From the NCBI GenBank assembly GCA_023659785.1, contig JAGXOR010000002.1, forward strand, positions 1 to 36,345: a stretch of DNA of 36,345 bases, in the 5' to 3' direction. Below the pieces are notes generated by a model. The model searched no databases. It was not told the origin of the DNA and saw nothing but the letters and a program-made list of their open reading frames with translations. Source of the stretch: Methanomicrobia archaeon LH_S13. GTDB lineage: Archaea > Halobacteriota > Syntropharchaeia > Alkanophagales > Methanospirareceae. This document shows positions 69 to 35,821 of the stretch, one piece after another (within the stretch, counting starts at the first letter, position 1; every line of letters starts with the position of its first letter). The translations under genes and the position numbers were made by a program.

Positions 69-512
69 TCATACCTCATAATCTGCATCTTTAACCTTCC
101 TAATTACAATCTCAACGGTATAATTCTGGATTGGGAACTCAAACAAAAGCTTATTATTTATAAACCTCGTTAAACTCTCTTCGTTATCAAATAGGCCGAT
201 TGCGTTAATCGAGAACTGCCCCGTGGTCTGATATATCTTAATAAACTCGTCCAGCCCTGCCAATTTAGGTAATGTGCTCCCCATCTCCTTTGGTTCTACT
301 TCCAGATTGAATATCGCAAGGAGCTTCTTACCAAAGTTCCTGGGATTTAGCAATATCGTATAACTCTTAATAGAGCCTTCCTTCTCCAGCTTCTCAAGCC
401 GGTACCTCACGCCATTTTCACTCAAACCGACCTCTTTTGCGATTTTAGATATGGGCGTCCTTGCATCCTGCTGAAGTATCTCAAGTATCTTATTATCTTC
501 TTTGCTTACCAT
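69..512 (-). CDS. Lrp/AsnC-family transcriptional regulator
   Basis: The ORF track runs 69..590. The likely true start is the ATG at 510-512 (MVSKEDNKILEILQQDARTPISKIAKEVGLSENGVRYRLEKLEKEGSIK), a typical N-terminal HTH_AsnC. It is followed by an AsnC/RAM-type ligand domain (FNLEVEP...IKIYQTTGQFSINAIG). Confidence 0.85.
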   Translation of the reverse strand: MVSKEDNKILEILQQDARTPISKIAKEVGLSENGVRYRLEKLEKEGSIKSYTILLNPRNFGKKLLAIFNLEVEPKEMGSTLPKLAGLDEFIKIYQTTGQFSINAIGLFDNEESLTRFINNKLLFEFPIQNYTVEIVIRKVKDADYEV

Positions 513-610
513 TATTTGTATATAATAGCGCCTTTTATATAAAACTTCCGAAACTTCAGAATAATCCGTTTTTATCTTAATATTCCTCAAATAACCTTTT
601 TAGCACTGTA
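513..610. promoter_or_regulatory. AT-rich divergent intergenic region with TATA-like boxes, between the Lrp regulator and the methyltransferase
   Basis: The sequences tatataatagcgcc and ttttatataaaac lie between the two divergent starts, in archaeal BRE/TATA-like context. No transcription start site is known. Confidence 0.35.
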
Positions 611-1834
611 ATGATTTTAAAGAGATTGATGAAAGAGAAAGAAGATAAAGTTTATAAACGTAATGCGATAAGCTATTACAACCAGCCGATGAGGAGTTCT
701 CGATATGATCCGGTAAAGGTCCGCTGGGAAGACAAGATATGCCAGGACCATTATCGTGAGATGGTCAAGCGGCTGATAGAGCGAGGAGAGAAGTTAAAAA
801 TCCTCGATTTTGGATGTGGCATCGGGTATGGGTATCATCTCTTATCGAATATACTTGAGGTGGATGTGCCGGTCGAGGAAGATGATTGTAAGCTACTAAA
901 TAATAATGACATGGAGTATTATGTGGGTCTCGATACAAACCCCGATCTGCTGGAGATTGCGAATGATAGATATAAGAGTGATGAGAAAGTGACGACCCGC
1001 CAGTGTGATTTCTTGCGCGATGAATACCCAGAGAGACAATTCAATATCTATTTCTCTTCAGGCGTTCCATTCTCTCACCTAAATAACGATGATTTCAGCT
1101 TGCTCCTTGAGAAGATATTCAATCACATAAAAAGCTTTGAGCGGCCTGCATTTCTCGTGGTGGACGTCCTGGGAAGGTACTCCATAGAATGGCAAACTCA
1201 GTGGAACGAACCCTCATGGCATATCTATAATATGTCATTCTTCAGTGACGGGAAGGTAAAAGAGCAGGTGTACATGAAATTCTGGGGAAAAGAATTGAAT
1301 GATTTTGTGATAGAAGCAGCACAAGAAGCCGGTATTAAAGCAGAGCTCTTCGATACTTTCGACCGTTCAATCTTCATCGGCAGGCACATAGATACGGGCA
1401 GCTTCAATACACGCCTGAAGCCAATGAGGACGAGGGTGAACAGATTATTTTACCCGCTCGAGCGGACTCCTTTACCTGATATGTTTATGGACTACAAGTA
1501 TGGGGGTGCTCCCGAAGAGGTTCGCGCATATTACGAGCGGATAGCATATCTCTGGAATTATGCAGTTGTGACCGCATGTAGCTATCTTGATATACCTGTT
1601 CCAGATTGGTTTGAAGTTGAAGAGGTGTATGCCATTCCAGAATACTTGAAGAGCGACCTGGAACATCTCGGAGAGATCACCAAGGATAAAAAGGCATACA
1701 AGCACACTGACGACTTCAGAGCAGATGTCTTTGAGCCTTCTTTGGGTTATCTTCTGCGCAACATCGAGCGCGATTATTCAGAAGGTTTAGGGGCCGCACA
1801 CACGCTCATATCAATCTTCGAGGTGACGCCATGA
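611..1834 (+). CDS. Class I SAM-dependent methyltransferase with a long C-terminal extension
   Basis: Motif I is ILDFGCGIGYGYHLL (GxGxG) and the post-I acidic strand is YVGLDTNPDLLEIAN. The protein is 407 aa. Its stop overlaps the next start (ATGA at 1831-1834). Confidence 0.7.
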   Translation: MILKRLMKEKEDKVYKRNAISYYNQPMRSSRYDPVKVRWEDKICQDHYREMVKRLIERGEKLKILDFGCGIGYGYHLLSNILEVDVPVEEDDCKLLNNNDMEYYVGLDTNPDLLEIANDRYKSDEKVTTRQCDFLRDEYPERQFNIYFSSGVPFSHLNNDDFSLLLEKIFNHIKSFERPAFLVVDVLGRYSIEWQTQWNEPSWHIYNMSFFSDGKVKEQVYMKFWGKELNDFVIEAAQEAGIKAELFDTFDRSIFIGRHIDTGSFNTRLKPMRTRVNRLFYPLERTPLPDMFMDYKYGGAPEEVRAYYERIAYLWNYAVVTACSYLDIPVPDWFEVEEVYAIPEYLKSDLEHLGEITKDKKAYKHTDDFRADVFEPSLGYLLRNIERDYSEGLGAAHTLISIFEVTP

Positions 1835-2712
1835 GCCTGAACCTGAACCTGAACTTCCTGACCGAGGAGGGATATCTACCGCCAGATCAGTTGAATGATC
1901 GTGACTGGCGTGATATAACATTGAGCAGAGAGGATGAAAGGACTATAACATCGCATATATTCAGCATATGTAAAGATATAAACATAAACCATATCCAATT
2001 TTTATCCCTCAAAGATCGGCGAATTATGCTGTACTTTTATCGCGACCAAGATATCGATTATTCGTGGTTTAGCAGAAGACTGGAGGAAAGAGAAGAGTTC
2101 GCTGATAGATACAGAGCAAACTGCACAAACTACGGTACACTGGTCGCAAAGAGGAACATCCACAAAGGGAATGCGCTCACACAATTCGCTTCGATGATTA
2201 ATGTTCCAATAAATAGGATTGCAAAGTTCGGTGATCAGGGGCAGAAAGGAGGGAACGACCACGAACTTCTCGCATATCCTGGAAGTTTCTCTGTCTATCG
2301 CGCAGATGAAGCCAATAGCAATACCTTTAACAGTCATGAATTATTCAATATATCAAATGCTGCTGGAACTCTTTGGATGATAGAGCGATTGAACTTTGTA
2401 TCACCCGATAATTCAAGAATTAAGGCATCGATGGATATGCCTTTCATTCAGTTTAAAGCGACTTATCAGGCAGCAGCCTTTGATATGGACGGGACGCTCC
2501 TATCCCCCGGGCAGTCCAGACCTTCAGATGATATGTACAGGATGCTGGCATCGTTGCTTGAGAACGGAATACCAATCGTAATTATAACTGCGAGAAACGC
2601 AGAAGAAATGGACCGTGTGTTTTTACGTGGATTCAGGAGATACTTTGATGAGATACCAAAAAATCTCTTCCTCTTCTTGTGCAATGGTGCTGCGCTTCTA
2701 AACGGTCATTAA
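1831..2712 (+). CDS. HAD-superfamily-like protein with permuted/rearranged motif order, apparently 3'-truncated
   Basis: The N-terminal half carries Cof-type late HAD elements: KGNALTQFASMINVPINRIAKFGDQGQKGGNDHELL (motif III Lys and a motif IV GDxxxND-like element). The last ~80 aa carry the early motifs: AAAFDMDGTLLSP (DxDGT, nt 2482-2496), IVIITARN (motif II) and CNGAALL. The ORF then stops 3 nt before the direct repeat that starts at 2716. Confidence 0.5.
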   Translation: MSLNLNLNFLTEEGYLPPDQLNDRDWRDITLSREDERTITSHIFSICKDININHIQFLSLKDRRIMLYFYRDQDIDYSWFSRRLEEREEFADRYRANCTNYGTLVAKRNIHKGNALTQFASMINVPINRIAKFGDQGQKGGNDHELLAYPGSFSVYRADEANSNTFNSHELFNISNAAGTLWMIERLNFVSPDNSRIKASMDMPFIQFKATYQAAAFDMDGTLLSPGQSRPSDDMYRMLASLLENGIPIVIITARNAEEMDRVFLRGFRRYFDEIPKNLFLFLCNGAALLNGH

Positions 2713-2715
2713 TTG

Positions 2716-2932
2716 CCGAATCTTCAGAAAATCCCTTTAATTTCTTATTTTTCCTCAAACAACCTATTTAAGGGTGTATAAGAAATAAATAATTATTTAT
2801 GTGCTCGATATGCGGCTATTTTTCTGATGAAAAAGTGCCGACGCGTATCGTTACCGATATGCTTATGCTCAAAAAGACCAAGCATAGAGGTCCAGATGCG
2901 CAGGGATTGTATGCGGATGGAAAGATTCTGAG
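2716..2932. repeat. Direct repeat, copy 1 (duplicated asnB promoter plus the first ~44 codons)
   Basis: Near-identical to 6732..6942. By eye there are 3 substitutions in the first ~30 nt and a 6-bp tandem insertion (tatgct) at about 2863-2868. Weaker similarity continues for ~35 nt beyond the end. Confidence 0.95.
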
Positions 2933-2987
2933 AAATGATGAGATAGGGGCTTTGGAAGATAGAACCCAATTTAATAACTATTTCTAA
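2799..2987 (+). pseudogene. 5' fragment of asparagine synthetase (duplicate of the asnB N-terminus)
   Basis: MCSICGYFSDEKVPTRIVTDML(ML)KKTKHRGPDAQGLYADGKILR matches the first 44 aa of the 531-aa AsnB at 6815. After that it diverges and stops at 62 aa, 9 nt before the ectA-ectB start. Confidence 0.9.
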
Positions 2988-2996
2988 ATAGATACG

Positions 2997-4862
2997 ATGA
3001 AAGGTAATGATACTACTGGTGGAGTAGAAGAGGTAGGGACGTATGGTGAATTCCGCTTTCGTCATCCTACGGTAGAAGATGGCGATGCGATATGGCGGCT
3101 TGTCAAGTATTCACCGCCACTTGACTTGAATTCGCGGTATAGTTACTTGATTTTATGTAAGCACTTCAGAGAGACCTGTGTAATCGGAGAAAACGAGAAG
3201 GGAATTGTCGCTTTTCTCTCATCCTACAAACCTCCAGAGAAATCAGATGTCTTGTTCATCTGGCAGGTGGCGGTCGCGCGACATCAGCAGGGAAAAGGAG
3301 TCGCATCGGTGATGGTAAAATATTTGCTGTCCGAGGAATATTTAAAAGATGTGACCTATCTGGAGACGAGTGTAACACCACCCAACAGGAAGTCACTCGC
3401 ATTCTTCAAGTCTATTGCCGGCTACCTCAATACAACCATAGAGAAGCAGGAGTTTCTGAAAGGGGAAGAGTTCGGAGCCGACGAACACCCACCTGAAATT
3501 CTATTGCGCATAGGACCAGGACCTTTTACACATGCACCAGAGGAGGTCTCAGACGAAGGATCCGAGGGTTTAAAAGTGTTCAAGGAGAAGGAGTCAGAGG
3601 TAAGGTCGTATTTACGCGCTTTTCCCACCGTTTTTGACCACGCTCATGGGTCAATCATCTATGATGAAAGCAATAACCGATACATTGATTTCTTCGCAGG
3701 TGCAGGAGCTTTAAACTACGGACACAACAACCCCCTGGTAACAAAGGCTTTAATAGAATACCTACAAAATGACGGAATCGTACATGGTCTTGATAAAGCA
3801 ACGACGAGTAAACGGCGTTTCATTGAGTCTTTCTACTCGACCATCCTTGAACCGCGTGACCTCGACTACAAGATACAGTTCCCTGGACCTACGGGTACAA
3901 ACGCTGTTGAGACCGCATTGAAGCTCGCTCGTATGATAAAGGGTACATCCAACATCATCGCATTTACCAACGCATTTCACGGGTTGACTATGGGGTCGCT
4001 TTCTATAACCGGAAATGACTTCTACCGGGACGAGTCGTTTATCAGCCGAAACAACGTCGCTTTCATGCCTTACGATGGCTACTTTGGTGATAGTATCAAC
4101 ACCGTTGATTACTTGCGGAAGGTCCTGGAAGACAGCAGCAGCGGTCTGGATGATCCAGCAGCAGTAATTGTGGAGACGGTCCAGGGTGAAGGTGGGGTGA
4201 ATGTTTCAAGCATTGAATGGCTCAGGCAATTATCTGAACTCTGCCATGAGTTTGACATACTGTTGATTATAGACGATATTCAGGTGGGGAACGGACGTAC
4301 TGGGCGGTTCTTCAGTTTTGAACACGCCGGTATCAAGCCTGACATTATTACACTCTCAAAGAGCATTGGTGGTGGTCTCCCCCTGTCACTTGTATTGATG
4401 AAGCCGGAGTTAGATATATGGAAGCCCGGAGAACACACAGGTACTTTCCGGGGCAACAATCTGGCTTTCGTGGCTGCCACACAGTTATTCAATTACTGGA
4501 AGACGGATGAACTAACACGAGAGATTAACAAGAAGTCATCTATGTTAAGGAAACGTCTTGAAACTATTAGAGATCGATACCCCCAGCTGGAGGCGGACGT
4601 CCGAGGTCGCGGGTTTATATATGGGCTGGATATTCCACACAGAGGCTTCAGCAAGCACCTTGCGAATGCTGCTTTCGACCGGAATGTGATTATTGAGCTG
4701 GCAGGTGCTGAAGACAACGTCCTGAAATTCCTCCCGCCATTGATTATAGAAGAAGAGTTGTTGAGAGAGGGACTTGACATAATCGAGGAGAGTGTGGAAG
4801 ATGTCCTTAAAGAGGAAGTGTTAATACATCAAACCAGAACTTCCGGTGATATGGTGCTATGA
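2997..4862 (+). CDS. ectAB: Fused L-2,4-diaminobutyrate acetyltransferase (EctA) / diaminobutyrate-2-oxoglutarate transaminase (EctB)
   Basis: The N-terminal ~175 aa align by eye to EctA (LVKYSPPLDLNSRYSYLILCKHFRETCVIG, FIWQVAVARHQQGKGVA, ETSVTPPNRKS, HPPEILLRIGP). From about aa 195 onward the sequence is EctB (ESEVRSYLRAFPTVF, FFAGAGALNYGHNNP, PGPTGTNAVE, VIVETVQGEGG, LLIIDDIQVGNGRTG, LSKS with the PLP lysine). It is one uninterrupted ORF of 621 aa. Confidence 0.9.
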   Translation: MKGNDTTGGVEEVGTYGEFRFRHPTVEDGDAIWRLVKYSPPLDLNSRYSYLILCKHFRETCVIGENEKGIVAFLSSYKPPEKSDVLFIWQVAVARHQQGKGVASVMVKYLLSEEYLKDVTYLETSVTPPNRKSLAFFKSIAGYLNTTIEKQEFLKGEEFGADEHPPEILLRIGPGPFTHAPEEVSDEGSEGLKVFKEKESEVRSYLRAFPTVFDHAHGSIIYDESNNRYIDFFAGAGALNYGHNNPLVTKALIEYLQNDGIVHGLDKATTSKRRFIESFYSTILEPRDLDYKIQFPGPTGTNAVETALKLARMIKGTSNIIAFTNAFHGLTMGSLSITGNDFYRDESFISRNNVAFMPYDGYFGDSINTVDYLRKVLEDSSSGLDDPAAVIVETVQGEGGVNVSSIEWLRQLSELCHEFDILLIIDDIQVGNGRTGRFFSFEHAGIKPDIITLSKSIGGGLPLSLVLMKPELDIWKPGEHTGTFRGNNLAFVAATQLFNYWKTDELTREINKKSSMLRKRLETIRDRYPQLEADVRGRGFIYGLDIPHRGFSKHLANAAFDRNVIIELAGAEDNVLKFLPPLIIEEELLREGLDIIEESVEDVLKEEVLIHQTRTSGDMVL

Positions 4863-5248
4863 TAGTCCGTAATATCGAGGAGATCAAGGGCAGCGAGAGG
4901 GAAGTGACTGCCGAAAACAATAACTGGATTAGCAGGCGTTTATTGTTAAAAAGAGACGGAGTTGGCTTCTCACTCAATGAGACTATCATCAATGAGGGGA
5001 CTGAGACATATATATGGTATAAGAACCATGTTGAAGCGGTGTACTGTATAGAAGGAGAGGGTGAAGTTGAACGCGTGGACGATAATAAGGTATACAATAT
5101 AACGCCTGGTACTTTATACGTACTCAACAAGCATGAAAAGCACCTTCTTAGAGCGAAGAAACGTATGCGAGTGGTGTGTGTCTTCAACCCACCCCTTGTA
5201 GGTAGTGAAGTCCACCAGGAAGATGGCTCATACCCTCTAATAGAATGA
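4859..5248 (+). CDS. ectC: L-ectoine synthase
   Basis: MIVRNIEEIKGSEREVTAENNNW...EGTETYIWYKNHVEAVYCIEGEGEVE...KHEKHLLRA...VCVFNPPLVGSEVHQEDGSYP is a close match to canonical EctC cupins. The start overlaps the ectAB stop (ATGA). Confidence 0.95.
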   Translation: MIVRNIEEIKGSEREVTAENNNWISRRLLLKRDGVGFSLNETIINEGTETYIWYKNHVEAVYCIEGEGEVERVDDNKVYNITPGTLYVLNKHEKHLLRAKKRMRVVCVFNPPLVGSEVHQEDGSYPLIE

Positions 5249-6726
5249 ATATGGAATACAAAAGCGATTTAAGGGATTTTTTTGTAGAGAAAGCAATCCT
5301 TGACGGCGTTGATATAGGCGAAGATACGATAACATTTAAATATCTTCTTGACGGTGACATAAACACGCTGAAAGTTAACTATAAATCACTTTCACTAAAA
5401 GAACCAAAACTTACCCGCGATAAGGGCGCCTTAAAAACGTTTGCTGTTTCTCTTGGTGTGTTCGGTTTTTTTCGATTTGGTGCTGTACTGCCTGCTCAAT
5501 TAGACATTACAAAATACTGTGGATGGGTTCACCCGGACTTAGTAAAGTTCCTTGAATACAGTATTCCACATGAGTGGAGTGAACACAGATATCAAATCCA
5601 GAGGTTGGACTATAAAGGTCCGGAGATACTATATGAAGAAAAAGAACTTGGTGCCCGGATGCATGCATTGCCTATCTGGAAGATAGATTCTACTCAGTCA
5701 GAGAAGGTAATGTTGACTTCCGGCGCGGGAAAAGACAGCCTGCTTTGTGCTTTATTGCTTGATGAAGCCGAAGTACACTATGACGTTATAACATACCTGC
5801 ACACGTATTACGGTGGAATGGAAAGCCAGGAGGATTTGTTTTCCAACGCCTCTAACGTATTCAATAGTGAAAAGCAACATGTTATCCACATATATGACGA
5901 CTACTATCCTTGGCTGAGGGAACGGTTAAAGCGGTTCAAAGTCAGTGAACGGATTCCGAAGAGTCCGGTGAAGAAACAAAAGTTTAGGACGGAAGCAGGC
6001 GAGGTCCTTTTCGGCTCAATGTCTTTCATTCCAATACAGATACTATATGATATAGGGTTACAGGTATTAGGCAATGAGAAGAGCGCAGACGCGCCCAACC
6101 TCGTTGATGATGCGACGGGAGAAGAAATAAGTCACCAGTGGATGAAAAGTATATACGCAGAAAAAGAAATGTTCGATCTGTTTGGAAAGTTGTTTCAAGG
6201 CATAGAGAGGGTAAGCCTACTTAAACCGTTTCACGATGTCTGGATATTCAGGACCTTGTTTGAGAAGGTAGGCGACAAGGTTTACACAACCTACTCCTGT
6301 AACGTACAGAAGCCCTGGTGTGGTTTATGTGAGAAATGCGCGTATGTGTTTGCGGGTTTCTCGGCGTTTGGCAACCATGAAAAGACCGTAAAAGCATTCA
6401 GCAAAGACCTGTTCAGGGATGAAGAACTCATTCCAATTTGGAAGCAGCTTCTGGGTTTAGAAGGTTACATTCCCTGGGAGTGTGTAGGGCACCCAAAGGA
6501 AGTGCAATTGTATTTCTACAAAGCCTACAACTCTAATATGAGAGGAGCAGCCATACAGTTATTTCAGCAAGAGATACTGGACAGGCAACTAAAGGGAAAA
6601 GGGGTGGATGTTGAGAAATACTTCAACGAGATTGAAGAGAAGTATTCGAGGGTCTACGAAGAACACCACTACATGCCAGACAGATTATGGAAGAAAGTAC
6701 ATAAAATAGTAGTGCCAATCACTTAA
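5245..6726 (+). CDS. PP-loop (N-type ATP pyrophosphatase)-like protein of unknown function, MurL-like by recollection
   Basis: The 493-aa ORF starts in an ATGA overlap with the ectC stop. It has a PP-loop-like motif MLTSGAGKDSLLCALL (about nt 5713-5760), a Cys cluster SCNVQKPWCGLCEKCAYVF (about nt 6297-6350) and IPWECVGHPKE near the C-terminus. Confidence 0.6.
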   Translation: MNMEYKSDLRDFFVEKAILDGVDIGEDTITFKYLLDGDINTLKVNYKSLSLKEPKLTRDKGALKTFAVSLGVFGFFRFGAVLPAQLDITKYCGWVHPDLVKFLEYSIPHEWSEHRYQIQRLDYKGPEILYEEKELGARMHALPIWKIDSTQSEKVMLTSGAGKDSLLCALLLDEAEVHYDVITYLHTYYGGMESQEDLFSNASNVFNSEKQHVIHIYDDYYPWLRERLKRFKVSERIPKSPVKKQKFRTEAGEVLFGSMSFIPIQILYDIGLQVLGNEKSADAPNLVDDATGEEISHQWMKSIYAEKEMFDLFGKLFQGIERVSLLKPFHDVWIFRTLFEKVGDKVYTTYSCNVQKPWCGLCEKCAYVFAGFSAFGNHEKTVKAFSKDLFRDEELIPIWKQLLGLEGYIPWECVGHPKEVQLYFYKAYNSNMRGAAIQLFQQEILDRQLKGKGVDVEKYFNEIEEKYSRVYEEHHYMPDRLWKKVHKIVVPIT

Positions 6727-6731
6727 AACTT

Positions 6732-6942
6732 CCGAATCTTCATAAAATCCCGTTAATATCTTATTTTTCCTCAAACAACCTATTTAAGGGTGTATAAGAA
6801 ATAAATAATTATTTATGTGCTCGATATGCGGCTATTTTTCTGATGAAAAAGTGCCGACGCGTATCGTTACCGATATGCTCAAAAAGACCAAGCATAGAGG
6901 TCCAGATGCGCAGGGATTGTATGCGGATGGAAAGATTCTGAG
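6732..6942. repeat. Direct repeat, copy 2 (native asnB promoter plus 5' coding end)
   Basis: See copy 1 at 2716..2932. The offset between the copies is 4016 nt. Confidence 0.95.
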
Positions 6943-8410
6943 GGGTAGGAAGATAAGCGATTTGGAAAGCAGTGAAAAGGCAAAAGTATGTCTTGGGCAT
7001 TCCAGATTAAGCATCGTTGGAGGCGATGATGCGATACAACCATTTCGGTCTTGTGACGGCTCTTTATCGCTGGTGCACAATGGCGAGATATACAACTATC
7101 AAGAATTAAGGGGGCTATTGAGTAAAGACCATACGATAGAGGACGAGAATAATGATAGCGAGATTCTCTTGCATCTGATAGAGGAAATCTACGATGGCAA
7201 TCTGTTGAGAACCGTGCAATCCGCTGTAAAGATGTTAAACGGCATGTATACCTTCGCGGTTACCAATGGTGTGGAAATCGCAATCGCAAGGGACCCGGTC
7301 GGTATAAAGCCGCTATATTCTGTACAAGAGGATGGAGGTGTCTTTTTCTGTTCTGAGAAGAAGGGGCTTTATGATATTGAAGGCGAAATCAAAAGGATAG
7401 CACCCGGGAAGATATTGAGGGCAAATAAAGAGGGAATATCTATACATCAAGGCGTGAGAATCGAGAGGCCACAGGTTGATATTACAGATTTCGATAAAGC
7501 CATGAGTTATAAAGATGCTTTAACTGATGCGGTTGAGGGGATGTTGAGGGGATTAAGCGTGGATAAGGTTGGGATGATCTTCTCTGGTGGTGTGGACTCG
7601 GTATTGATAGCAAAGCTCATATCTGACTTTGGATGGAATCTCAGATGCTATTGTGTTGGGAAAGAGGATTCCGAGGATGTAAAGAATGCGGAAAAGATAG
7701 CCAAAGATTTAGGATTGGAGTTAAGCGTGATTTATATTGATGAGCGAAAAGTGGAGATGATACTGCCAGAGATTATCGAATCTATCGAGATTGAGGGTCT
7801 CCTTCAGGTCGAGGTCGCGGTTCCGATGTATCTTGCAGCAAAGGCGGCATCTGAAGACGGAATAAAGGTGATGTTCACGGGACAGGGTGCGGATGAGTTA
7901 TTTGCGGGTTATTGGTGGTATAAGGAAGTGGTAAGCAAGGATGGGTTCTTGAAACTGCACAATAAATTATGGGAAGATATTGGTTTATTGTATGACGATA
8001 CACTTGAAAGGGAAGATAAGGTTACAATGGGTCATTCTGTTGAGTTACGCGTTCCATACCTAGATAGAAATGTTGTACAATGTGCAATGAGGATTTCTCC
8101 AACTCTTAAGATAAAGGATGGTGAGGATTCGATCAGGAAATGGGTTCACAGAAGGGTTGCAGCAACGCTTGGTGTGCCGCACTATACAGCATATCGGGGA
8201 AAGGATATGGCACAGTCAGGGTCGGGTGTGCATGGTCTGGTAAAAAAGGTTGCAGATGAATATTTTGAAGGGAAAAAGGTTGACGAAGTCGAGATCGTGG
8301 ATAAGGGTTCGAACTATCGATATCTGGATGAGGATTATGGAACGCCAGAGATGCGGGCATATATGCATGAGATAACAGAGAACAATCAATGCCTTGGGGA
8401 TAATGCATAA
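6815..8410 (+). CDS. asnB: Asparagine synthetase (glutamine-hydrolysing)
   Basis: The N-terminal nucleophile Cys2 (MCSICGY) marks an Ntn glutaminase domain (HSRLSIVG, LVHNGEIYNY). The synthetase domain has the PP-loop FSGGVDSVLIAKL and FTGQGADELFAGY. Confidence 0.9.
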   Translation: MCSICGYFSDEKVPTRIVTDMLKKTKHRGPDAQGLYADGKILRGRKISDLESSEKAKVCLGHSRLSIVGGDDAIQPFRSCDGSLSLVHNGEIYNYQELRGLLSKDHTIEDENNDSEILLHLIEEIYDGNLLRTVQSAVKMLNGMYTFAVTNGVEIAIARDPVGIKPLYSVQEDGGVFFCSEKKGLYDIEGEIKRIAPGKILRANKEGISIHQGVRIERPQVDITDFDKAMSYKDALTDAVEGMLRGLSVDKVGMIFSGGVDSVLIAKLISDFGWNLRCYCVGKEDSEDVKNAEKIAKDLGLELSVIYIDERKVEMILPEIIESIEIEGLLQVEVAVPMYLAAKAASEDGIKVMFTGQGADELFAGYWWYKEVVSKDGFLKLHNKLWEDIGLLYDDTLEREDKVTMGHSVELRVPYLDRNVVQCAMRISPTLKIKDGEDSIRKWVHRRVAATLGVPHYTAYRGKDMAQSGSGVHGLVKKVADEYFEGKKVDEVEIVDKGSNYRYLDEDYGTPEMRAYMHEITENNQCLGDNA

Positions 8411-11211: not shown

Positions 11212-12132
11212 TCACTCTACCACTTTCTTAAGTGCTGGTATTATCCTCGGATACCCCACAGCCATCATGTGGCATCCAGTCGCCGGTGTATCTTTTAGAT
11301 GCTCTAAGAAACCTGTGAAGTACTCCACATTGACTCTATCTACCTCTTCCTTCCTCTTCGCCTTATCCTTTATTTCTTTCGTCTTTTTCAGGTTTTTAAG
11401 ATAATCAGGTGGGACATCAACGCCTGCTACCGCCTCATCGAAGAACTTCGCCGCTCCATAACTCTTTGCTGGGAATATTCCAACAAAAACTGGAACACCC
11501 AAATCGCCTAATTCTTTAAAGAAATTATCCAGTACCTCAGGGAGGTAAATGACCTGAGTTTGTATGAATTCAGCTCCGGCTTTTACTTTCCTTTTCACTT
11601 TGTATGCTTCAGCCTGTAAAACAGCCGCTCCTGGAGCACCCGCCGCTCCTATATGCATTTTTGGTGGTTCCGCTATCTCATTTCCTGCAAGGTCTTTTCC
11701 CTCATCTACTATTTTCCTTATCATATAAGACAGCGTAGTTGAATCCAAATCATATACCGGCTTCGCATCTGGTGTATCCCCAAGTGCTACGTGGTCACCC
11801 GTTAATGCTAAAATGTTCTTTATTCCCATGACGCCAGCGCCAAGCACGTCAGCTTGAAGAGCTATACGATTCCTATCTGAGCACCTGAGCTGATATACCG
11901 CCTCCATACCCGCTTCTTCCTGTATTTTATAAGCTGCTACCAGACTGCTAAGAGTTGCAAAGCTCTGAGGGCTATCCGTCACGTTACAGGCAATAACATG
12001 TCCTTTTAGGTCTTTCGCTGCTTGTACTACTGATTCAACGCTGCCTGCCTTCTCAGGTTCTAATTCCCCCGTCCAGACAAATTTCCCTTCCTCTACTTCT
12101 TTCATCAATTCGCTATACACTTCTTTAGCCAT
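11212..12132 (-). CDS. metF: Methylenetetrahydrofolate reductase-like (MetF family)
   Basis: The protein is 306 aa with a TIM-barrel MTHFR pattern (ACNVTDSPQS, YQLRCSDRNRIALQADVLGAGVMGIKNILALTGDH, FIQTQVIY). It lies directly downstream of metV. Confidence 0.8.
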   Translation of the reverse strand: MAKEVYSELMKEVEEGKFVWTGELEPEKAGSVESVVQAAKDLKGHVIACNVTDSPQSFATLSSLVAAYKIQEEAGMEAVYQLRCSDRNRIALQADVLGAGVMGIKNILALTGDHVALGDTPDAKPVYDLDSTTLSYMIRKIVDEGKDLAGNEIAEPPKMHIGAAGAPGAAVLQAEAYKVKRKVKAGAEFIQTQVIYLPEVLDNFFKELGDLGVPVFVGIFPAKSYGAAKFFDEAVAGVDVPPDYLKNLKKTKEIKDKAKRKEEVDRVNVEYFTGFLEHLKDTPATGCHMMAVGYPRIIPALKKVVE

Positions 12133-12166
12133 TTTTTATCCCTTCCTCCAAACTCTCTTCTCTCCT

Positions 12167-12943
12167 TTACTCACCCTCTGCTTTTTCTTCGTGCTTTGGT
12201 GTAAAAGGTTTCCTGAGACCAAAAGATACGTATTCAGGAATAGACCCAAACATGGTGCGTCCAAGACTAATAGGTTTTTCTATCTTGAAAGTCCGTGGTC
12301 TTTTCATTTTACTCCATGCATGTGGTTCTCTCATTTTCAGGAGTTCATCGAGTTCGCCAAGTTTCTCCAATCGCTCATATATCTTAACCCATGCGCAGTC
12401 CTTTTCTGGGTCCGTTTCGCATTTCCCATCTTCTCGCACTCCTCCACAAGGACCGTTCATCAATCCTTTCCCGCACGCAGTCAAAGGGCAGATACCAGCA
12501 ATTTTTCCTAATTCACATTCTCCACATCCCTGACACGTCTCCTTAAAATCAGTAGGACCTCCACCTACATTCCCCATTGAATTATTTGCAGGATATACGG
12601 ACTTTGCGAGACCCATTTTGTCATCCAGATATTCTCGCACTACCTGCACACCCTCACCACAGCTTTGCACTAAAACCGCATCGCAGCCCTCAATCGCCTT
12701 TCGGTTCTTCTCCAAAAAGACCGAACTCATGTCAATCTCACAGGCAGAAATACCCAAAGGCAGGAAAATTTTGGTGACATCTTTCCCTTCTTTCGTAAGT
12801 TTCTCTGCCATCTCTTTTACTGCCTTTTTGTCGCCGGTTTGATAGAATGTAGCACACCCCCCACAGCCCATTGTTACTATCCTCTGTTTTCCCTCAAGGT
12901 AGCCCAGAATCTCGTCCATAGGCTTCTGCTCTTGCGCAATCAT
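12167..12943 (-). CDS. metV: MetV-type Cys-rich partner of MetF (MTHFR C-terminal-domain-like protein)
   Basis: The Cys clusters are MGCGGCATF, QSCGEG, CQGCGECELGKIAGICPLTACGKGLMNGPCGG and DGKCE. This pattern is characteristic of MetV next to MetF. Confidence 0.75.
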   Translation of the reverse strand: MIAQEQKPMDEILGYLEGKQRIVTMGCGGCATFYQTGDKKAVKEMAEKLTKEGKDVTKIFLPLGISACEIDMSSVFLEKNRKAIEGCDAVLVQSCGEGVQVVREYLDDKMGLAKSVYPANNSMGNVGGGPTDFKETCQGCGECELGKIAGICPLTACGKGLMNGPCGGVREDGKCETDPEKDCAWVKIYERLEKLGELDELLKMREPHAWSKMKRPRTFKIEKPISLGRTMFGSIPEYVSFGLRKPFTPKHEEKAEGE

Positions 12944-20646: not shown

Positions 20647-20995
20647 TATTGTTCTCGTTCATCTGGCAGAATATCAATAAATTTCACCTTCCTCGGCGTT
20701 TCCCGTATCTCTTTTATCTCTGAATACAATGGGTGATAGGACACCACATACAGGTGCTTCATCGCTCTCGATACCGCATCAATTAATCTGGGTCGAGCGT
20801 AGCTTCGTAACCGCCAAGATATATCCTGTACGGATTTAGCTTCTCTAATTCCTTTACTATGTTCTCAAAGTTCCAATCAATATATCTCCTCTCTTCTGCA
20901 TAGATGTCGTATTCGTTTTTTTCATAGCCGTGCTTGTATACAAAGTATAACTTTCTTCTGTTTAAGTTAAGACACGGATTTATTTTCCAGTTCAC
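20647..20995 (-). pseudogene. Radical-SAM(-activase)-like remnant, frameshifted
   Basis: ORF 20783..20995 ends …YRIYLGGYEATLDPD* (a GGEPTL-like motif). The CxxxCxxC region is degenerate (CLNLNRRKLY). The +1 frame continues LIDAVSRAMKHLYVVSYHPLY…. Confidence 0.4.
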
Positions 20996-21650
20996 CTCCT
21001 TTTATATCCAAAAACCACATCCCTTTCACATGCACTTTTTCCAGTTCACCCACCTTTATCCTTCTCTTAAATATCGGTCCGTCAACTACAAAAGTATGAT
21101 ACTCCCCTGATTCGCCGGACAGATGGAAATTGTACTTTTTCAGCTCTTCGATAAAGGATTCGTCAAATCTCCTGCCCAACCATTCTTCTTTTATTCTCGT
21201 CGCAACTACTATTGCTTCAAAGCCTTCTGCTATGAACTCCTGCACTATATCCCCTGGGTCGAGACCCCAAAGAGGGATGATTGGTTCTATTTCAAGGTCG
21301 CTGCAAACCCCCTCTATCCATTTCCGGTGCTCAATCAGGTCAATATCGCCGAAAACGCCTCCTTCCACGTCATCAAGTTTTAATTCTTTCACAGCTTCTT
21401 TGAATTTACTCTCATAGCCCTCCCATGAAGCATTCCCCTGAACTATTGGTATTCCTATGGCTTCTGATTGAAGCTTCAGTAGAAAAGGGCGAGTTCCATG
21501 TGCTCTTTCCCTCTTCCCATCCTCATCTAGCAAATTCAAGAGATGCGATACATCAAACCCGTCAAGCATTGCTTTGTAACATGCTAAACTGCTGTCCTTT
21601 CCTCCACTCCAGGAACAGAAAACGCGCTTCTTTTCTTTCACTTCTTTCAT
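20967..21650 (-). CDS. dph6: PP-loop ATPase of the diphthine-ammonia ligase (Dph6/MJ0570) family
   Basis: VFCSWSGGKDSSLACYKA, FGDIDLIEHRKWIE and GESGEYHTFVVDGPIF are present. The protein is 227 aa. The start overlaps the stop of the binding-protein gene (ATGA). Confidence 0.75.
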   Translation of the reverse strand: MKEVKEKKRVFCSWSGGKDSSLACYKAMLDGFDVSHLLNLLDEDGKRERAHGTRPFLLKLQSEAIGIPIVQGNASWEGYESKFKEAVKELKLDDVEGGVFGDIDLIEHRKWIEGVCSDLEIEPIIPLWGLDPGDIVQEFIAEGFEAIVVATRIKEEWLGRRFDESFIEELKKYNFHLSGESGEYHTFVVDGPIFKRRIKVGELEKVHVKGMWFLDIKGGELENKSVS

Positions 21651-23513: not shown

Positions 23514-24214
23514 CTTCTTTCTTCACCTCCGAAGAGCACTTCACAAATGTATTTTATATCGTTCATGTCATCGTTATACCATCGCCTTCTCATCGTATAA
23601 ACGATGTATGAAACGGCACCGATGAGCAACCCTACGACTGTGGTGCCAAATGCAATGATTAAATTGTTTGCAAGCGTATCCACATCGCCCCTCGTAAGTG
23701 CTAATAATGCAGGACCCATCGGTATCAGCGTTCCCATAAGCCCGAACATCGGACCAAGTCTGACCATCACCTTTGTTCGTTCAAGCCGCTTTGTGATGAA
23801 TGAATCGCATTTCTGCAGTAACTTCTCAAGATTTATTGAAAACATGTCCGGATTTTGAGATGTTTTCTCCTCTTTTTTGTCTTTAAGCGCTAAAAGACCG
23901 TCTAAAAAGAGATGTATAAACCGCTTCTTTAAGGTGCATTCCATGAGAATGCTGATTCCTTCATCAAATTTGCCTTTATCTATCAGCGTCTTTGTTTCAA
24001 GCACGCTTTTCTCAAGGTCTTTCGGTTTATTATCTCCTATCTTTAATTTTAATCTACCAGCTCTCGCAAGCCCTTCACATGAGAACATACCGATTTCAAT
24101 AACAATAAACGCAGTCATACCGAGCAATATGATAATTACAGGATATAGTAACGATGTCGAGACGAGGTATATCGCAGATTGAAGAATATATGGCAGATTC
24201 AGGCTAAGAATCAT
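23510..24214 (-). CDS. MotA/TolQ/ExbB-family proton-channel protein
   Basis: The core is RLGPMFGLMGTLIPMGPALLAL…LANNLIIAFGTTVVGLLIGAVSYIVY (MotA_ExbB). An N-terminal transmembrane helix and a cytoplasmic helical insert are also present. The start overlaps the upstream stop (ATGA). Confidence 0.85.
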   Translation of the reverse strand: MILSLNLPYILQSAIYLVSTSLLYPVIIILLGMTAFIVIEIGMFSCEGLARAGRLKLKIGDNKPKDLEKSVLETKTLIDKGKFDEGISILMECTLKKRFIHLFLDGLLALKDKKEEKTSQNPDMFSINLEKLLQKCDSFITKRLERTKVMVRLGPMFGLMGTLIPMGPALLALTRGDVDTLANNLIIAFGTTVVGLLIGAVSYIVYTMRRRWYNDDMNDIKYICEVLFGGEERR

Positions 24215-27200
24215 CTTTTGCCCCTCCTATAAGCCCTCTTCTCTTTGCAATATCCGAAATAGAAAAGAGCTAATGCTAATACTATGAGTGCTATAATAAA
24301 CAAATGCAGCTTTTCTCCACTGCCTGATGCGCCAGAAGTGGCGTTTCCAAATGGGAATCCCGAAACTTCTTCCTTTTTATCGCTCGCAGATTTGCTTTCA
24401 TTTATTTGCGTTTGCGTTCCCCCTACCCCTACTCCTGTTCCGATTCCTGTTTCATTGGTTCCCTCTTCGTGTCCTTCACTTATCCAGTCTTCTCCTGAGT
24501 CTGAGCCACCACCACCCCTTGACCCGCCTATCCATCTTTTAGGCTCTTTTTCCTCCTCTTTCTCATATACTTTAACCTCCTTTGATATAACATTGTTTTC
24601 TTCATTTTTCTCTTCTATTTCATCTCCTGGGTCAATTTCCGCCTTTAGAATGAATTCCCCAGTTTTCTCTGGCATCCACGTGAATTCTGCACTTCCATTC
24701 TCAGCCGGATTTATCTTATCAATGAGCTTACTACCTATCTCGTTAATATCCGCTTTTAGTATAACGAGAACGCCATTTTCTTCCGTTTTCCCGATGTTCT
24801 TCACAATCACGGTTATAATATTTCCACTGTTTGCATAGATTTTATCCGCTGTTTTTATTTCAGCAGGCTTTAAATCTGGCTTCTCATATACTTCAACATC
24901 ACTGAACGCCTTATTATTGAGTGGATTCTCTTCGGTTATATTATCCCCCGAGTCAACTTCTGCAACAAGCCTGCAAGTCCCAACATCTTCCTGCCTTGCC
25001 GTCCATTTGAAACTTATCGTCTTCCCTTCACTTACATTTAGATACGAAATTGTTTCTATTCCGACATCCTCTCCATTCGCCCTCAATTCAACATTGAAAC
25101 TCTCGTTCACATCTCCATCACCGATATTCTTCACCGTAACGTTCACAAGCACATTTTCACCAACATAAACCCTTTCTGGCGCATCAAAAGAAGAAATATT
25201 CAAGTCAGGAGCATATGAAGAGCCGAAGCACCATACTTTGTCCTGCCCAATGGTATAAACCCTTCCGTTGGCAATAACAGCAGTCGAGCCACCGAAGGAT
25301 GAATTCCATATCTCTTCTCCAGTCAAGGCATTCAGGCAGTATGTGCCATCAGCTGCAAAAGCATCTCCTCCCTCCCCTATATTTCCGACAATCAGTTTAC
25401 CATCGCTCGAAACCACGGGTGAAGCTGTCCATCCACCTATATCAACTTTCCATATCTCATCGCCATTTTCGGGATTGAGGCAATAAGTTGCGATGTCAGA
25501 ATAACCTATGCAGCCACCACTGATATACATGTTTCCATAAGCATAAGCAGGCGTCGAATCTGTCCTTATCCCTCTTTTCTTCCATTTTACATCTCCATCC
25601 GCAGGATACATCGCATAATAGGTTGCATCTCCATCGAAATTGAATGTTCCAAAGTATAATATTCCGTGTATCGGTGTTATCGAGCCCCAGACGCCGTAAT
25701 CTGTTATATTATACCATTTTCTGGTCCCGTTTTTGTATAAGCAATAAATAGATCCGTGTGCTCCAGAACCAGAAGAGCCGATAGTGCAGGACCCGAAGCC
25801 AACAAAGACTTTTCCTTCATAAAAAGCAGGAGTAGCAGTGGCACGTGGATTTGTCATATTTGCTATTTCCCGCGCATCCGTCTCATTGAATACCCATAGA
25901 GTAGTCCCATTTTCTTCATCCAGGCAGTAATACTCCGGGTCGCTATCTGCTCCTCCATATCCACCAATAAATACTTTCCCAGATGCAATTGTGGGGCATG
26001 AGTTCGCCACCTTCTTTGGTAGAGTTGTAATCCACTCCTTTTCACCGCTTCCTGCATCTATCGCTGATATTTCTTTCCCAGAACCTATGAACACCTTTCC
26101 ATCGTGATAAGCCGGGGAAGACCATGAACCATCATACCTTTTATCCAATTCCCTATTCCATATGAATTTGCCATCACTTTCGTTAAGTGCGACCAAAAAC
26201 GTTCCCGATTCATTTTCACAATAAACAAAAACCTTTCCCCCTGCAACTATCAGCTGAGACGAATCAACCGCTCCTATATCTGTTGTGTTCCACGCAATCG
26301 CGTTTGTATCCGGAGCTTCGGAGAGAGAGAATCCTGCATTGTAATGGAATTGCGGTGCCTCTTTATGTGATTCTTTATTGCATATTGTAAAAGGCTCTAC
26401 GGTGGTATCAGAATCAGTAAAATTCCCATCGCTTGCTTCTACCATCAACATATATTCACCATCTGGCATGTCTTTTATATACCACGAGTGGCATCCATCA
26501 TTATCCTCATCCACCGCTATTTTTATCCAGCTCCTTCCATGATCTGGGCTGTAACTTATGCTTATATTCAAAAGATCGCCGTCGAGGTCTGTTGCATTCC
26601 ATTTCACATCGATGTAATCGGGATTAATGAAAGTTTCTCCACCTCTCGGATTTATAAGCTTTATCTCAGGTGCTCCAGCGATTACTTCAATATCTGCATA
26701 CCTCAAGTTGTTTGTTTCGTTCTCTTCGTAAACATTATTATCCGCATCTGCTACCACAAATACACTGTAAAAACCCTTTTCAATAGGAATCCACGAAAAG
26801 CTAACATTTTCCACACCAAAAATCCTTTGTATCTTCTTCTTTTCAATTAAAAATACCGAACTATCATTTGTTAAGTTGGTCAAACTCGTAAAATTCTCTT
26901 TATCCTTGTGATGATAAGCATATAAAGACACGTTGAAACTCTCTCCTGCTCCTTTTAGAGATACATTTATCAAATTGCTTTTATTCACTAACAGGAATTT
27001 ATTCTTGAAAGAAGCATTATTGGCAGGTGGCAGAAAAGTGATATTGGACGGGATAAGGTCTGGCAATGTCACATTTATTTCCCCAATCCCTGTATTGTTC
27101 TCCTCATCTGATTCTTTTACATCATCATCACAGTCAATATTGACCTTGGGGCTATAACTCCCTTTAAATTCGGGGTTCCAGGTAAAGTTCACAAGTTTCT

Positions 27201-31913: not shown

Positions 31914-31954
31914 TTTTTTCACTCCATTTTTATTGAGACCAGGTAGCAGGTTAG

Positions 31955-33995: not shown

Positions 33996-34042
33996 CTAAT
34001 ACATTTACCAATGTATATTCTTTATAAAACCAGGAATTGAAA

Positions 34043-35821
34043 ATGAGCCTCATTAACCCGCATTTAATCTTGCTTCACCCACCAGCAGTATACGATTTCA
34101 GACAGTACTCTGTATTATACGGTCCAATCGCAGATGGTGTGCCTTCAACTCCGATATTCGAAATATACCCCATCGGCTTCTTTTCTATCATGGAATATCT
34201 GGAGAGAAATGGCATGCGCGTGAGAATAATCAATTTAGCAGCGAGAATGCTCGCCAGTGACGATTTCGATGTTGAGAAAATGATACGCTCCGTCGAACCA
34301 AAGGCTTTTGGAATTGACCTCCACTTTTTGCCTCATGCCCACGGGAGCATCGAAATAGCGAAGATATGCAAACGTTATCACCCCGACATACCCGTCATCT
34401 TCGGTGGGTTTTCCGCAACTTACTTCTATGAAGAGTTAATCCACTATCCCGAGGTGGATTTTATCCTAAGAGGTGATTCCGCAGAAGAGCCGCTTCTAAT
34501 GCTCATGCGCGCGATTATTCGACATTCCCGCGCCGCCTACGGCTTCAGCGATATTCCAAACCTCGTTTGGAAGGATGACAGCAGCGAGGTGCACACAAAT
34601 CCGTTCACTCACGTGCCAACCGAAATAAACAAATTTTCAAATAATTACGTCTATGCTTTCAAATCAGCACTGAAATACCGTGATATTGCGGGTCTCGCCC
34701 CTTACCACGGCTGGTCTTCCGAATGGATGCAATATCCCATCACGCCAGTGATAACCTGCCGTGGATGTGCGTATAACTGCATCTTCTGCGGGGGCTCGAG
34801 GAACGCGCTCGCAAATTACTGCAATCGAGAGCGACCTGCTTTTCGTGACCCTCATTTAATCGCAGAGGACATTGTAAAAATCACACGATATACCAAAGCG
34901 CCTGTATTCGTGATAGGCGACATCCGCCAGCCGGGGCAGGAATACGCTCGCACGGTCTTAGAAGGCGTGAAAAAAGCAAAATCGCAAATTGGCAATCATC
35001 TCGTTTTTGAGTTGTTCACGCCTGCACCAGAGGAACATTTTGAACTCGTGGCTGAATCCGTCGAAAACTTTAATTTCGAAATATCCCCGGACAGCCATGA
35101 TGAGTCAATAAGAGCTGCCATGGGGAAACGGTATAAAAACGCAGAAATTGAAGATAATATAAGGTGGGCTCTGGATTTGGGGTGCAACAGATTTGATCTG
35201 TTCTTCATGATTGGACTCGCTTTTCAGACATGCGAATCCGCGATGGCGACTGTTGATTGGTGTGGAAACCTGATGGATAAGTTTGGCACGAAAGCAGTCC
35301 CTTTTATTTTGGCTTACAGTCCTTTCCTCGACCCTGGCTGTATAGCATACGAGAATCTTGAAAAATTCGGATATAAAATCCTTTTCAAAACGCTCGAGGA
35401 ATATCGAAAGGCAATGCTCGCGCCGAGCTGGAAATATGCTCTGAATTACGAGACGGAGTGGATGACACGAGCACAAATCGTGGACTGCACCTATCGAGCC
35501 GGGCTGAAACTGAACAAACTGAAGGCGGAATATGGTTTGATTGACGGGCATTCGTTCACGACAACGGAAGAGCGGATAAAGCGTGCAATTGACCTTACTG
35601 CAAGGATAGACGAAATAAAAGGGATAAAAGACGCATCAGCCCAGCAAGAGCGATTGATGCAATTGAAACCTGAACTCGATACGATTTTCCTCTCGATTAT
35701 CAATGAGAAGAAGCAGATGGAGTGGCCTGTGCCTGTTGGAAAGAGGACTTTCAGGGTTTTTCGGCTCCTCAAACAGATGATGCTCGAATATTTACATGCA
35801 AAACACACAAAAATGTATTGA
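34043..35821 (+). CDS. B12-binding-domain radical SAM protein (class B)
   Basis: The N-terminal Rossmann-like B12-binding region is ILLHPP…IGFFSIMEYLERNGMRVRIINL…DIPVIFGGFSATYF…DFILRGDSAEEPL. The radical SAM box is TCRGCAYNCIFCGG. The ATG at 34043 is preferred over the TTG at 34037. Confidence 0.8.
   Translation: MSLINPHLILLHPPAVYDFRQYSVLYGPIADGVPSTPIFEIYPIGFFSIMEYLERNGMRVRIINLAARMLASDDFDVEKMIRSVEPKAFGIDLHFLPHAHGSIEIAKICKRYHPDIPVIFGGFSATYFYEELIHYPEVDFILRGDSAEEPLLMLMRAIIRHSRAAYGFSDIPNLVWKDDSSEVHTNPFTHVPTEINKFSNNYVYAFKSALKYRDIAGLAPYHGWSSEWMQYPITPVITCRGCAYNCIFCGGSRNALANYCNRERPAFRDPHLIAEDIVKITRYTKAPVFVIGDIRQPGQEYARTVLEGVKKAKSQIGNHLVFELFTPAPEEHFELVAESVENFNFEISPDSHDESIRAAMGKRYKNAEIEDNIRWALDLGCNRFDLFFMIGLAFQTCESAMATVDWCGNLMDKFGTKAVPFILAYSPFLDPGCIAYENLEKFGYKILFKTLEEYRKAMLAPSWKYALNYETEWMTRAQIVDCTYRAGLKLNKLKAEYGLIDGHSFTTTEERIKRAIDLTARIDEIKGIKDASAQQERLMQLKPELDTIFLSIINEKKQMEWPVPVGKRTFRVFRLLKQMMLEYLHAKHTKMY

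Follow-up and report, generated by a model that had tools for sequence, protein, structure and literature searches.

A MurL-family PP-loop protein encoded in an archaeal ectoine cassette, a possible accessory enzyme of ectoine-type solute chemistry

MurL has been described as an ATP-dependent, unidirectional epimerase without recognised domains, and it has been proposed to adenylate the α-carboxylate of a terminal glutamate (PMC8788868). QueC, a PP-loop enzyme, is recognised by its SGGxDS loop and by a zinc-binding C(x)8CxxCxxC motif (PMC13329287). For ectoine gene clusters, ectD, ask_ect and ectR are the only accessory genes named in the main phylogenomic review, and all of them are found in a subset of clusters (PMC5924519). 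Here we analyse an open reading frame (ORF) of 493 amino acids (aa), located at 5245..6726 on the + strand directly behind the ectoine synthase gene ectC in a stretch of 36,345 nucleotides (referred to below as the window) from contig JAGXOR010000002.1 of Methanomicrobia archaeon LH_S13. The original prediction, made from the letters of the window, had regarded its product as a PP-loop enzyme resembling MurL and as a possible new step in ectoine-type chemistry. We assign this protein with high confidence to the MurL family, with a QueC-type PP-loop core, and find that its gene very probably belongs to the ect operon and cassette; its function is weighed below among several alternatives.

Precomputed Pfam annotation places MurL_N (PF26299) and MurL_epimerase_C (PF26298) on the window protein and on all of its homologues, and the NCBIfam equivalog model of MurL (NF041275) matches it with 81.5 bits (E 4.5e-23) against a curated cut-off of 700, the match covering residues 265-487 or model positions 224-445 only, i.e. 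the C-terminal half. With hmmscan, run on a Pfam set without the MurL models, no family was found at E <= 0.01, and the QueC family PF06508 gave no sequence match at the same threshold. Searches of the PDB by sequence returned nothing with phmmer and only matches of E 0.044-1 with a profile, one of which, a weak one, aligns the PP-loop of the MurL-like protein to the P-loop of TtuA. An AlphaFold2 model based on 28 homologues (pLDDT 92.6, pTM 0.91) comprises an N-terminal β/α domain, a QueC-type PP-loop core and a C-terminal helical domain. Compared with the PDB by Foldseek, it retrieved QatC first (9y01, the best E at 2.5e-4), then QueC (2pg3), Cap9 (9nto) and YcfA, followed by TrmU/MnmA, TtuA, NcsA, LarE, NAD synthetase and ThiI, so that the top matches are mostly PP-loop enzymes, with Foldseek probabilities of 0.9-1.0; the global TM-score against QatC is 0.37-0.41. 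The comparison with QueC and LarE that the original prediction had proposed thus places QueC-type folds first and LarE further down, and the PP-loop itself is borne out by these matches (QueC, QatC, Cap9, TtuA, LarE and NAD synthetase among them) and by an invariant motif. The resemblance to MurL, suggested originally, is upheld by the NCBIfam and Pfam models and by catalytic motifs shared with the canonical branch. What our analysis adds to the existing descriptions is that MurL-family proteins have the QueC fold and belong among the PP-loop enzymes.

Conservation was examined in 143 relatives (42 close ones, here called tier 1, and 101 distant ones, tier 2) and in four canonical-branch MurL sequences, with scores of 350-390 bits against the complete NF041275 model. 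Invariant in 143/143 relatives are G160, G162, K163, D164, S165, E278, S280, H297, Q298 and K301, as well as S351-C352-N353, K356-P357-W358-C359, C362, K364-C365, C413 and G415. With the canonical-branch sequences included, the same ten residues from G160 to K301 are invariant, together with S351, C352, N353, W358, C359, C362, K364, C365, C413, G415 and E419, and these shared motifs argue for the MurL type of reaction. They comprise a variant PP-loop, S159-G-A-G-K-D-S165 (5719..5739, + strand), which is intact, its G160, G162, K163, D164 and S165 being invariant; a cluster of four cysteines, C352-x6-C359-x2-C362-x2-C365 (6298..6339, + strand), invariant in all tiers, which is a putative variant of the QueC-type zinc site and probably binds zinc; and E412-C413-V-G415 (6478..6489, + strand), which includes a fifth invariant cysteine and is a candidate for the acid/base residue. 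The motifs SGAGKDS, PWCGLCEKC (P357-WCGLCEKC-365) and WECVGHP (W411-ECVGHP-417), pointed out originally, are all present in the translation.

With MurL, the window protein shares the two-domain Pfam architecture, the motifs GxGKDS, ExS, HQ..K, SCN..WCxxCxKC and (E/D)CVG and, presumably, ATP-dependent carboxylate activation; however, it is 21-24% identical to the canonical-branch sequences, has an insertion of ~25 residues at 222-250 and a shorter spacing of the cysteines, and is encoded in a murein-less archaeon, without murD2, inside an ectoine operon. QueC, QatC and Cap9 are its best structural matches, have a P-loop and a CxxCxxC zinc-type motif and activate a carboxylate with ATP, as the window protein may do by analogy. 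Unlike QueC, however, it has 493 rather than ~220 aa, with extra N- and C-terminal domains, a P-loop altered at one position (SGAGKDS instead of SGGxDS) and C(x)6 instead of C(x)8 spacing, and its locus lacks queD/queE, Qat or CBASS partners. That the protein is either a canonical MurL or a defence protein of the QatC type is effectively refuted: a match to the MurL model, the top rank of QatC in Foldseek and the automatic naming of tier-1 relatives as MurL epimerase in some sources (P0051) would favour these identities, but the MurL score is far below its cut-off and confined to the C-terminal half, the host is archaeal, and neither mur genes nor murD2 or a murein context were found in the 36-kb window. 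QatC or Cap9 as an anti-phage protein is contradicted by the low global TM-score, by the lack of a PADLOC match and of QatA/B/D or CBASS (Cap10/CD-NTase) partners in the window, and by the neighbours, which are ect genes, asnB, a methyltransferase gene and a HAD gene. QueC proper was rejected because there is no match to PF06508 and no que gene in the window. The archaeal host is indicated in the window by MetF/MetV, Dph6, a PGF-CTERM protein and GatC. The MurL-like protein has its closest relatives in metagenome-assembled genomes of anaerobic methanotrophic archaea (ANME-1) and Methanosarcinales.

The reality of the gene follows from its homologues (~69 in the database search, 2019 family representatives) and from a dN/dS of ~0.2 between archaeal copies; the intact copies, with values of 0.20-0.27 similar to those of EctAB (0.16-0.22), are under purifying selection. 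It is preceded by a fused ectA-ectB gene (621 aa, 2997..4862, + strand) that joins a GNAT domain (Acetyltransf_1 at 53-143) to a diaminobutyrate (DABA) transaminase (Aminotran_3 at 210-598; TIGR02407 ectB 638.6 bits, cut-off 552), and by ectC (129 aa, 4859..5248, + strand; Pfam Ectoine_synth 199 bits, NCBIfam PRK13290 196 against a cut-off of 128). As first described, the 493-aa ORF starts inside the ectC stop in an ATGA overlap (5245..5248, + strand), an arrangement of translational coupling, and ends just before the second copy of a direct repeat, with a gap of one base to copy B (6727..6967, + strand); copy A (2711..2957, + strand) precedes ectAB. The overlap is kept in four of six archaeal lineages (the window, L008, L009 and L011/L088) and is the ancestral state, the junction carrying a duplication of 22-23 nt in L001 and L012. 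The order ectAB-ectC-ORF-asnB recurs in 9/9 other archaeal contigs that reach ectC (L001, L002, L008, L009, L011, L012, L088, L174 and L175), and L010, which begins inside the MurL-like ORF, shows ORF-asnB only; at least seven archaeal copies are retained intact.

Between the window and L001/L009, dS is 0.17-0.19 for the MurL-like ORF and 0.12-0.25 for ectAB/ectC, compared with 0.64-0.77, or 3-4 times the value of the cassette genes, for the flanking asnB. It follows that these archaea have exchanged the repeat-flanked block as one unit, in which the MurL-like ORF travels with the ect genes; the exchange is recent relative to the asnB flank. It is these matching dS values and the repeat boundaries that substantiate the membership of the ORF in the cassette of ectAB-ectC. 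EctC of the archaeal cassette forms a tight clade of ~30 variants with 91-100% identity, and its nearest bacterial relatives, of Syntrophales type, are ~70% identical. The ectA-ectB fusion is common to the ANME-type cassette (L002, L174, L175), and the two genes are separate in the nearest bacterial ect clusters (L172, L173) and in another archaeal cluster (L176).

The neighbourhoods of MurL-family genes were surveyed in 167 loci, from one genome per species plus JGI metagenomes, which were grouped into the archaeal clade, tier 1 (bacterial, 41-56% identity) and tier 2 (25-35% identity); the counts of neighbours cover the loci of at least 5 kb, i.e. 8 archaeal, 35 tier-1 and 90 tier-2 loci. 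Among the archaeal loci, ect genes are present in all seven that include upstream sequence, AsnB in 8/8 and MscS in 5/8. EctC-type genes reappear in 4 of the 90 tier-2 loci, at a distance of 0-3.5 kb from the MurL-family gene. One is in Desulfonema limicola (L074, 19-6750), where the order is PBP-MscS, EctC-like, a fusion of SBP and 'glycine transporter', MurL-like and GDT1; L145 (281-4148) and L148 possess the same transporter fusion, and in them the MurL-like gene immediately follows an EctC-like gene; and L159 presents MurL-like, a PQ-loop transporter, EamA, EctB, GNAT and EctC. The protein of L074 is 59% identical to those of L145/L148, that of L159 is 35% identical to that of L074, and these MurL-family proteins show 25-28% identity to that of the window, so that two distant lineages (L074/L145/L148 and L159) and the archaeal cassette make three MurL-family lineages beside EctC-type genes. 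By our rough estimate, which assumes ectC in ~10% of genomes and once per ~4 Mb, chance would give ~0.05 EctC-type loci among the 90 tier-2 loci, compared with two independent lineages observed. What the three related loci L074, L145 and L148 share is a conserved triad in which the tier-2 MurL-family gene accompanies a solitary EctC-type cupin and a membrane fusion of SBP_bac_3 and 'Gly_transporter'.

The function that we favour, tentatively and with somewhat less than even confidence, is the ATP-dependent activation, by an accessory enzyme, of the carboxylate of an ectoine-pathway or related solute. The gene is very probably an accessory of the ANME-1-type ectoine cassette, presumably co-transcribed and mostly translationally coupled with ectC, and ectAB-ectC-ORF would be part of an island of three operons, probably osmoregulated, that share one promoter/operator element. 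The enzyme would most likely bind ATP at the PP-loop and adenylate the α-carboxylate of a small N-substituted α-amino acid with release of pyrophosphate; by analogy with MurL, exchange of the α-proton, for which the invariant Cys413 or Glu412 would be the candidate base, and hydrolysis of the adenylate might then result in a unidirectional, ATP-driven epimerisation. We consider an ectoine-pathway metabolite a plausible substrate, at somewhat less than even odds, the likeliest class being perhaps ectoine itself or N-acetyl-diaminobutyrate, and epimerisation the reaction that we favour, with slightly lower confidence still. Ectoine and N-α-acetyl-DABA presumably resemble the N-acyl-glutamate terminus recognised by MurL in their blocked α-nitrogen, free α-carboxylate and two-carbon side-chain spacer. 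Like the known ect accessory genes (ectD, ask_ect, ectR and the mscS of Nitrosopumilus), the MurL-like gene is found within or beside ectABC, apparently co-transcribed, in a subset of clusters; unlike them, it encodes a protein of a different family with no described role there, and it is restricted to one archaeal cassette type and a few bacterial EctC-type loci.

A number of points weigh against an ectoine-related function. No ect gene occurs in any of the 35 tier-1 loci, which represent the closest bacterial subfamily, and the nearest bacterial ect clusters (L172, L173) as well as a different archaeal ect lineage (L176) are plain ectA, ectB, ectC without a MurL-family gene. In L011/L088 a tandem duplication of 31 nt and a TAG codon interrupt the MurL-like gene, with ectAB and ectC intact, so that this gene is accessory and not required for ectoine synthesis. 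We know of no ATP-dependent ectoine derivative and of no D-ectoine; our literature search gave no link between MurL and ectoine, and for ANME-1 and ectoine it returned nothing specific. The N-terminal half of the protein is unmatched by the MurL model, therefore substrate recognition differs from that of MurL and is not readable from it, and for MurL itself the mechanism and the catalytic residues are proposals in the literature (PMC8788868). As to the association of homologues with ect genes, by which the original prediction was to be judged, it holds for all archaeal cassette contigs reaching ectC and for L074/L145/L148 and L159, and it fails in tier 1, in L172, L173 and L176 and, through decay of the gene, in L011/L088: the link is real but not general, and the interpretation first given is supported in part.

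The genomic context supports about as well as an ectoine substrate the alternative, on the whole somewhat unlikely, that the enzyme partners AsnB and/or an S-adenosylmethionine (SAM) methyltransferase and not EctABC, in a separate pathway for another amino-acid-derived solute (e.g. a betaine or an amide), its place in the ect operon reflecting the packing of all osmoprotection genes into one co-regulated island. In the window, the glutamine-hydrolysing asparagine synthase gene asnB (531 aa, 6815..8410, + strand; TIGR01536 328 bits, cut-off 267) follows the MurL-like gene, as it does in 8/8 archaeal loci and also in L174 and L175, with its own copy of a promoter element that likewise drives ectAB and the gene of a SAM methyltransferase of 407 aa (MT407, 611..1834, + strand; Pfam Methyltransf_25). 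AsnB-type genes, which pass the AsnB equivalog cut-off, adjoin 5 of the 35 tier-1 loci in two lineages, namely Thiotrichaceae (L003-5) and Calothrix (L015/L090/L168), and the Calothrix gene order is AsnB, MurL-like, a member of the MT407 family directly 3' of it, and an OpuA-type ABC transporter. Other SAM methyltransferases, of ~250 aa, are present in 10 of the 35 tier-1 loci and a sulfotransferase in 5, and further contexts of this tier, often flanked by transposases, include aminotransferases, an Orn/DAP decarboxylase, an AlaDH-like gene, SDRs and SSF/EamA transporters, of which aminotransferases, the decarboxylase and both kinds of transporters are encountered in L169-L171. In L011/L088, moreover, asnB, which ends at residue 296, is defective together with the MurL-like gene, ectAB/ectC being intact.

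On the other hand, dS of the MurL-like ORF tracks ectAB/ectC and not asnB, and the ORF is enclosed by the repeats that bound the ect cassette and shares bases with the stop codon of ectC; MT407 and its companion 'HAD' gene are absent from L009, L012 and L174, which retain ectAB-ectC-ORF-asnB; and AsnB is located downstream in archaea but upstream in bacteria. The transferred segment of L011 ends where asnB is truncated, which leaves one ambiguous case behind the apparent co-loss. The case for AsnB as the single conserved partner is weakened by the dS pattern and by the absence of MT407 from several archaeal loci.

AsnB is also part of a further explanation, which we regard as improbable, that the protein resembles QueC, Cap9 and QatC in acting as a carboxylate-to-amide (or nitrile) ligase and not as an epimerase. 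It would then adenylate the carboxylate of a solute and pass it on to ammonia or an amine, the ammonia possibly being provided by the glutaminase of AsnB or by a CN-hydrolase. The best structural matches are indeed enzymes of the QueC family, which make amides from adenylated carboxylates, the P-loop and Cys4 motifs are of QueC type, and AsnB, elsewhere also CN_hydrolase, is encoded directly downstream. There is, however, no match to PF06508, all motifs including the fifth cysteine are common to the MurL branch, described as an epimerase without a nitrogen donor, and AsnB has a complete synthetase domain of its own. Enzymes of the AsnB/β-lactam synthetase type use PP-loop ATP-pyrophosphatase chemistry on a carboxylate, and a real AsnB adjoins the MurL-like gene, whose product nevertheless has no glutaminase domain and no match to the Asn_synthase Pfam family; AsnB-type enzymes, moreover, are not known to carry the Cys4 site.

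It is very improbable that the gene is an unrelated hitchhiker or decaying passenger of a mobile ect cassette with no role in solute metabolism. Such a history would fit its sporadic, often transposase-flanked occurrence in bacteria (L006, L019, L168, L171) and its disruption in L011/L088, possibly also in L012, but it is at odds with a dN/dS equal to that of EctAB, with a window copy in which the motif alignment finds every catalytic motif intact, with at least seven intact and translationally coupled archaeal copies and with the independent EctC associations elsewhere. The cassette of L011 (2420-4877) and L088 (2496-4974) lies in a different genomic background, on a Methanolliviera-labelled contig with genes for β-oxidation-type enzymes downstream; the likely history is that the cassette was acquired laterally and that the accessory gene then decayed, the alternative being a chimeric assembly.

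Tier-2 loci, mostly from cyanobacteria (L033-L084, L106-L166), were considered as canonical MurL genes (~30% identity) that would stand beside murD2, and rejected as such. A murD2 or murein context was found in 0 of roughly 170 sampled MurL-family loci, and the neighbours, confirmed by Pfam and NCBIfam, are instead DUF427 (40 of the 90 loci), OvoA-type EgtB (26), a radical-SAM family of ~500 aa (23), EgtD (21) and an OpuA-type betaine transporter (18). Such neighbours suggest that these genes are linked to the metabolism of ergothioneine or betaine, a link which to our knowledge has not been described for the MurL family. The cyanobacterial radical-SAM family is B12-like, and a Thiotrichaceae contig (L003; 2021-6834 and 12451-15607) contains five paralogous copies and two short fragments of such genes, the copies being 50-61% identical to the cyanobacterial ones and surrounding AsnB and the tier-1 MurL-like gene. 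A radical-SAM gene of B12 type in the window itself (34037-35821) is unrelated to this family.

The two direct repeats that bound the cassette, each of ~250 nt, are 96% identical over 217 nt. Copy B comprises a promoter/operator and the true 5' end of asnB, and copy A the same promoter/operator and a 5' remnant, asnB', with an ORF of 62 codons (2799..2987, + strand) upstream of ectAB. A duplicated promoter in front of asnB had been recognised before, and it is real, but the repeat is more than a promoter in that it includes the first ~47 codons of asnB. Copy A lies upstream of ectAB in all archaeal loci extending that far, the asnB remnant having decayed to ~15 nt in L001/L009. A third copy of the promoter/operator, 78% identical (522..602, + strand), precedes the unit of MT407 and 'HAD', and a promoter part of ~70 nt is conserved in all three copies in related genomes, with the invariant core CTTCCGAAnCTTCAGAA...TCCTCAAA...CTATTTA. 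Identity between copies A and B is 96% in the window and L008 and 81% in L012; the pair could have arisen by Campbell-type integration followed by gene conversion, the latter being suggested in the lineage of the window and L008 only. Since the element is shared, MT407-HAD, ectAB-ectC-ORF and asnB would constitute one regulon, and because asnB is followed in other genomes by MscS and CN-hydrolase genes, this island is probably osmoregulated. A divergent gene for an AsnC/Lrp-family protein (69..590, - strand; HTH_AsnC-type and AsnC_trans_reg domains), found upstream of the cluster also in L001, L008, L009, L012 and L174, encodes a candidate regulator of the three repeated promoters. A scan of the window for sigma-70 promoters and intrinsic terminators, bacterial models applied to an archaeal host, gave no excess over shuffled sequences, and tRNA and Rfam scans found nothing in it.

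MT407, which would be co-regulated with the ect cassette and is a possible functional partner, has its nearest solved relatives, with weak scores (E ~1e-4), among phosphoethanolamine N-methyltransferases, and it also gave a weak PADLOC match to 'mad2'; members of its family were identified in the window, L015/L168 (8046-9299), L026, L090, L104 and L010. The 'HAD' ORF behind it (293 aa, 1831..2712; HAD motifs) appears permuted or truncated: motif I (DMDGTL) is near residue 215, with ~80 domain residues after it, its N-terminal part corresponds to the C-terminal half of HAD profiles, and its stop coincides with the repeat boundary (2711). Elsewhere in the window there are a MetF/MetV-type pair of methylene-tetrahydrofolate reductase genes (11212-12943), which we take to fit ANME-1, a gene for the diphthamide synthase Dph6 (20967-21650), a PP-loop enzyme unrelated to the MurL-like ORF, and genes for two giant CARDB/PQQ β-propeller surface proteins of 1655 and 937 aa (24211-31922).

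As a member of a known family, the protein is not categorically new. What is new is that a MurL-type enzyme is encoded in a murein-less archaeon, attached to an ectoine operon, and that orphan EctC-type genes elsewhere also have such a neighbour. Few osmoprotectant pathways have been studied as well as that of the ectoine clusters, to which the MurL-like enzyme would add a step of ectoine-type chemistry, in uncultured methane-oxidising archaea of saline sediments, and a new ectoine stereoisomer or derivative, if this were the product, would be of biotechnological interest. A first functional handle may be gained on orphan EctC-type proteins, which in two loci are paired with both a transporter and a MurL-family gene, and on the MurL family itself. 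This family has been characterised in its peptidoglycan branch only, though ~2000 sequence clusters exist, and it is conceivable, albeit unlikely, that it is a broad family of ATP-driven α-carboxylate epimerases or ligases for small zwitterionic solutes and not primarily a cell-wall family, which in ANME-1 makes a new ectoine-type solute from ectoine or acetyl-DABA. If so, candidates for the ANME-1 product would be a D-epimer, inaccessible to the catabolism of neighbouring organisms, or a derivative whose synthesis AsnB completes, and sister subfamilies would carry out analogous chemistry beside orphan EctC-type genes and beside the ergothioneine genes (EgtD, OvoA-type EgtB) of cyanobacteria.

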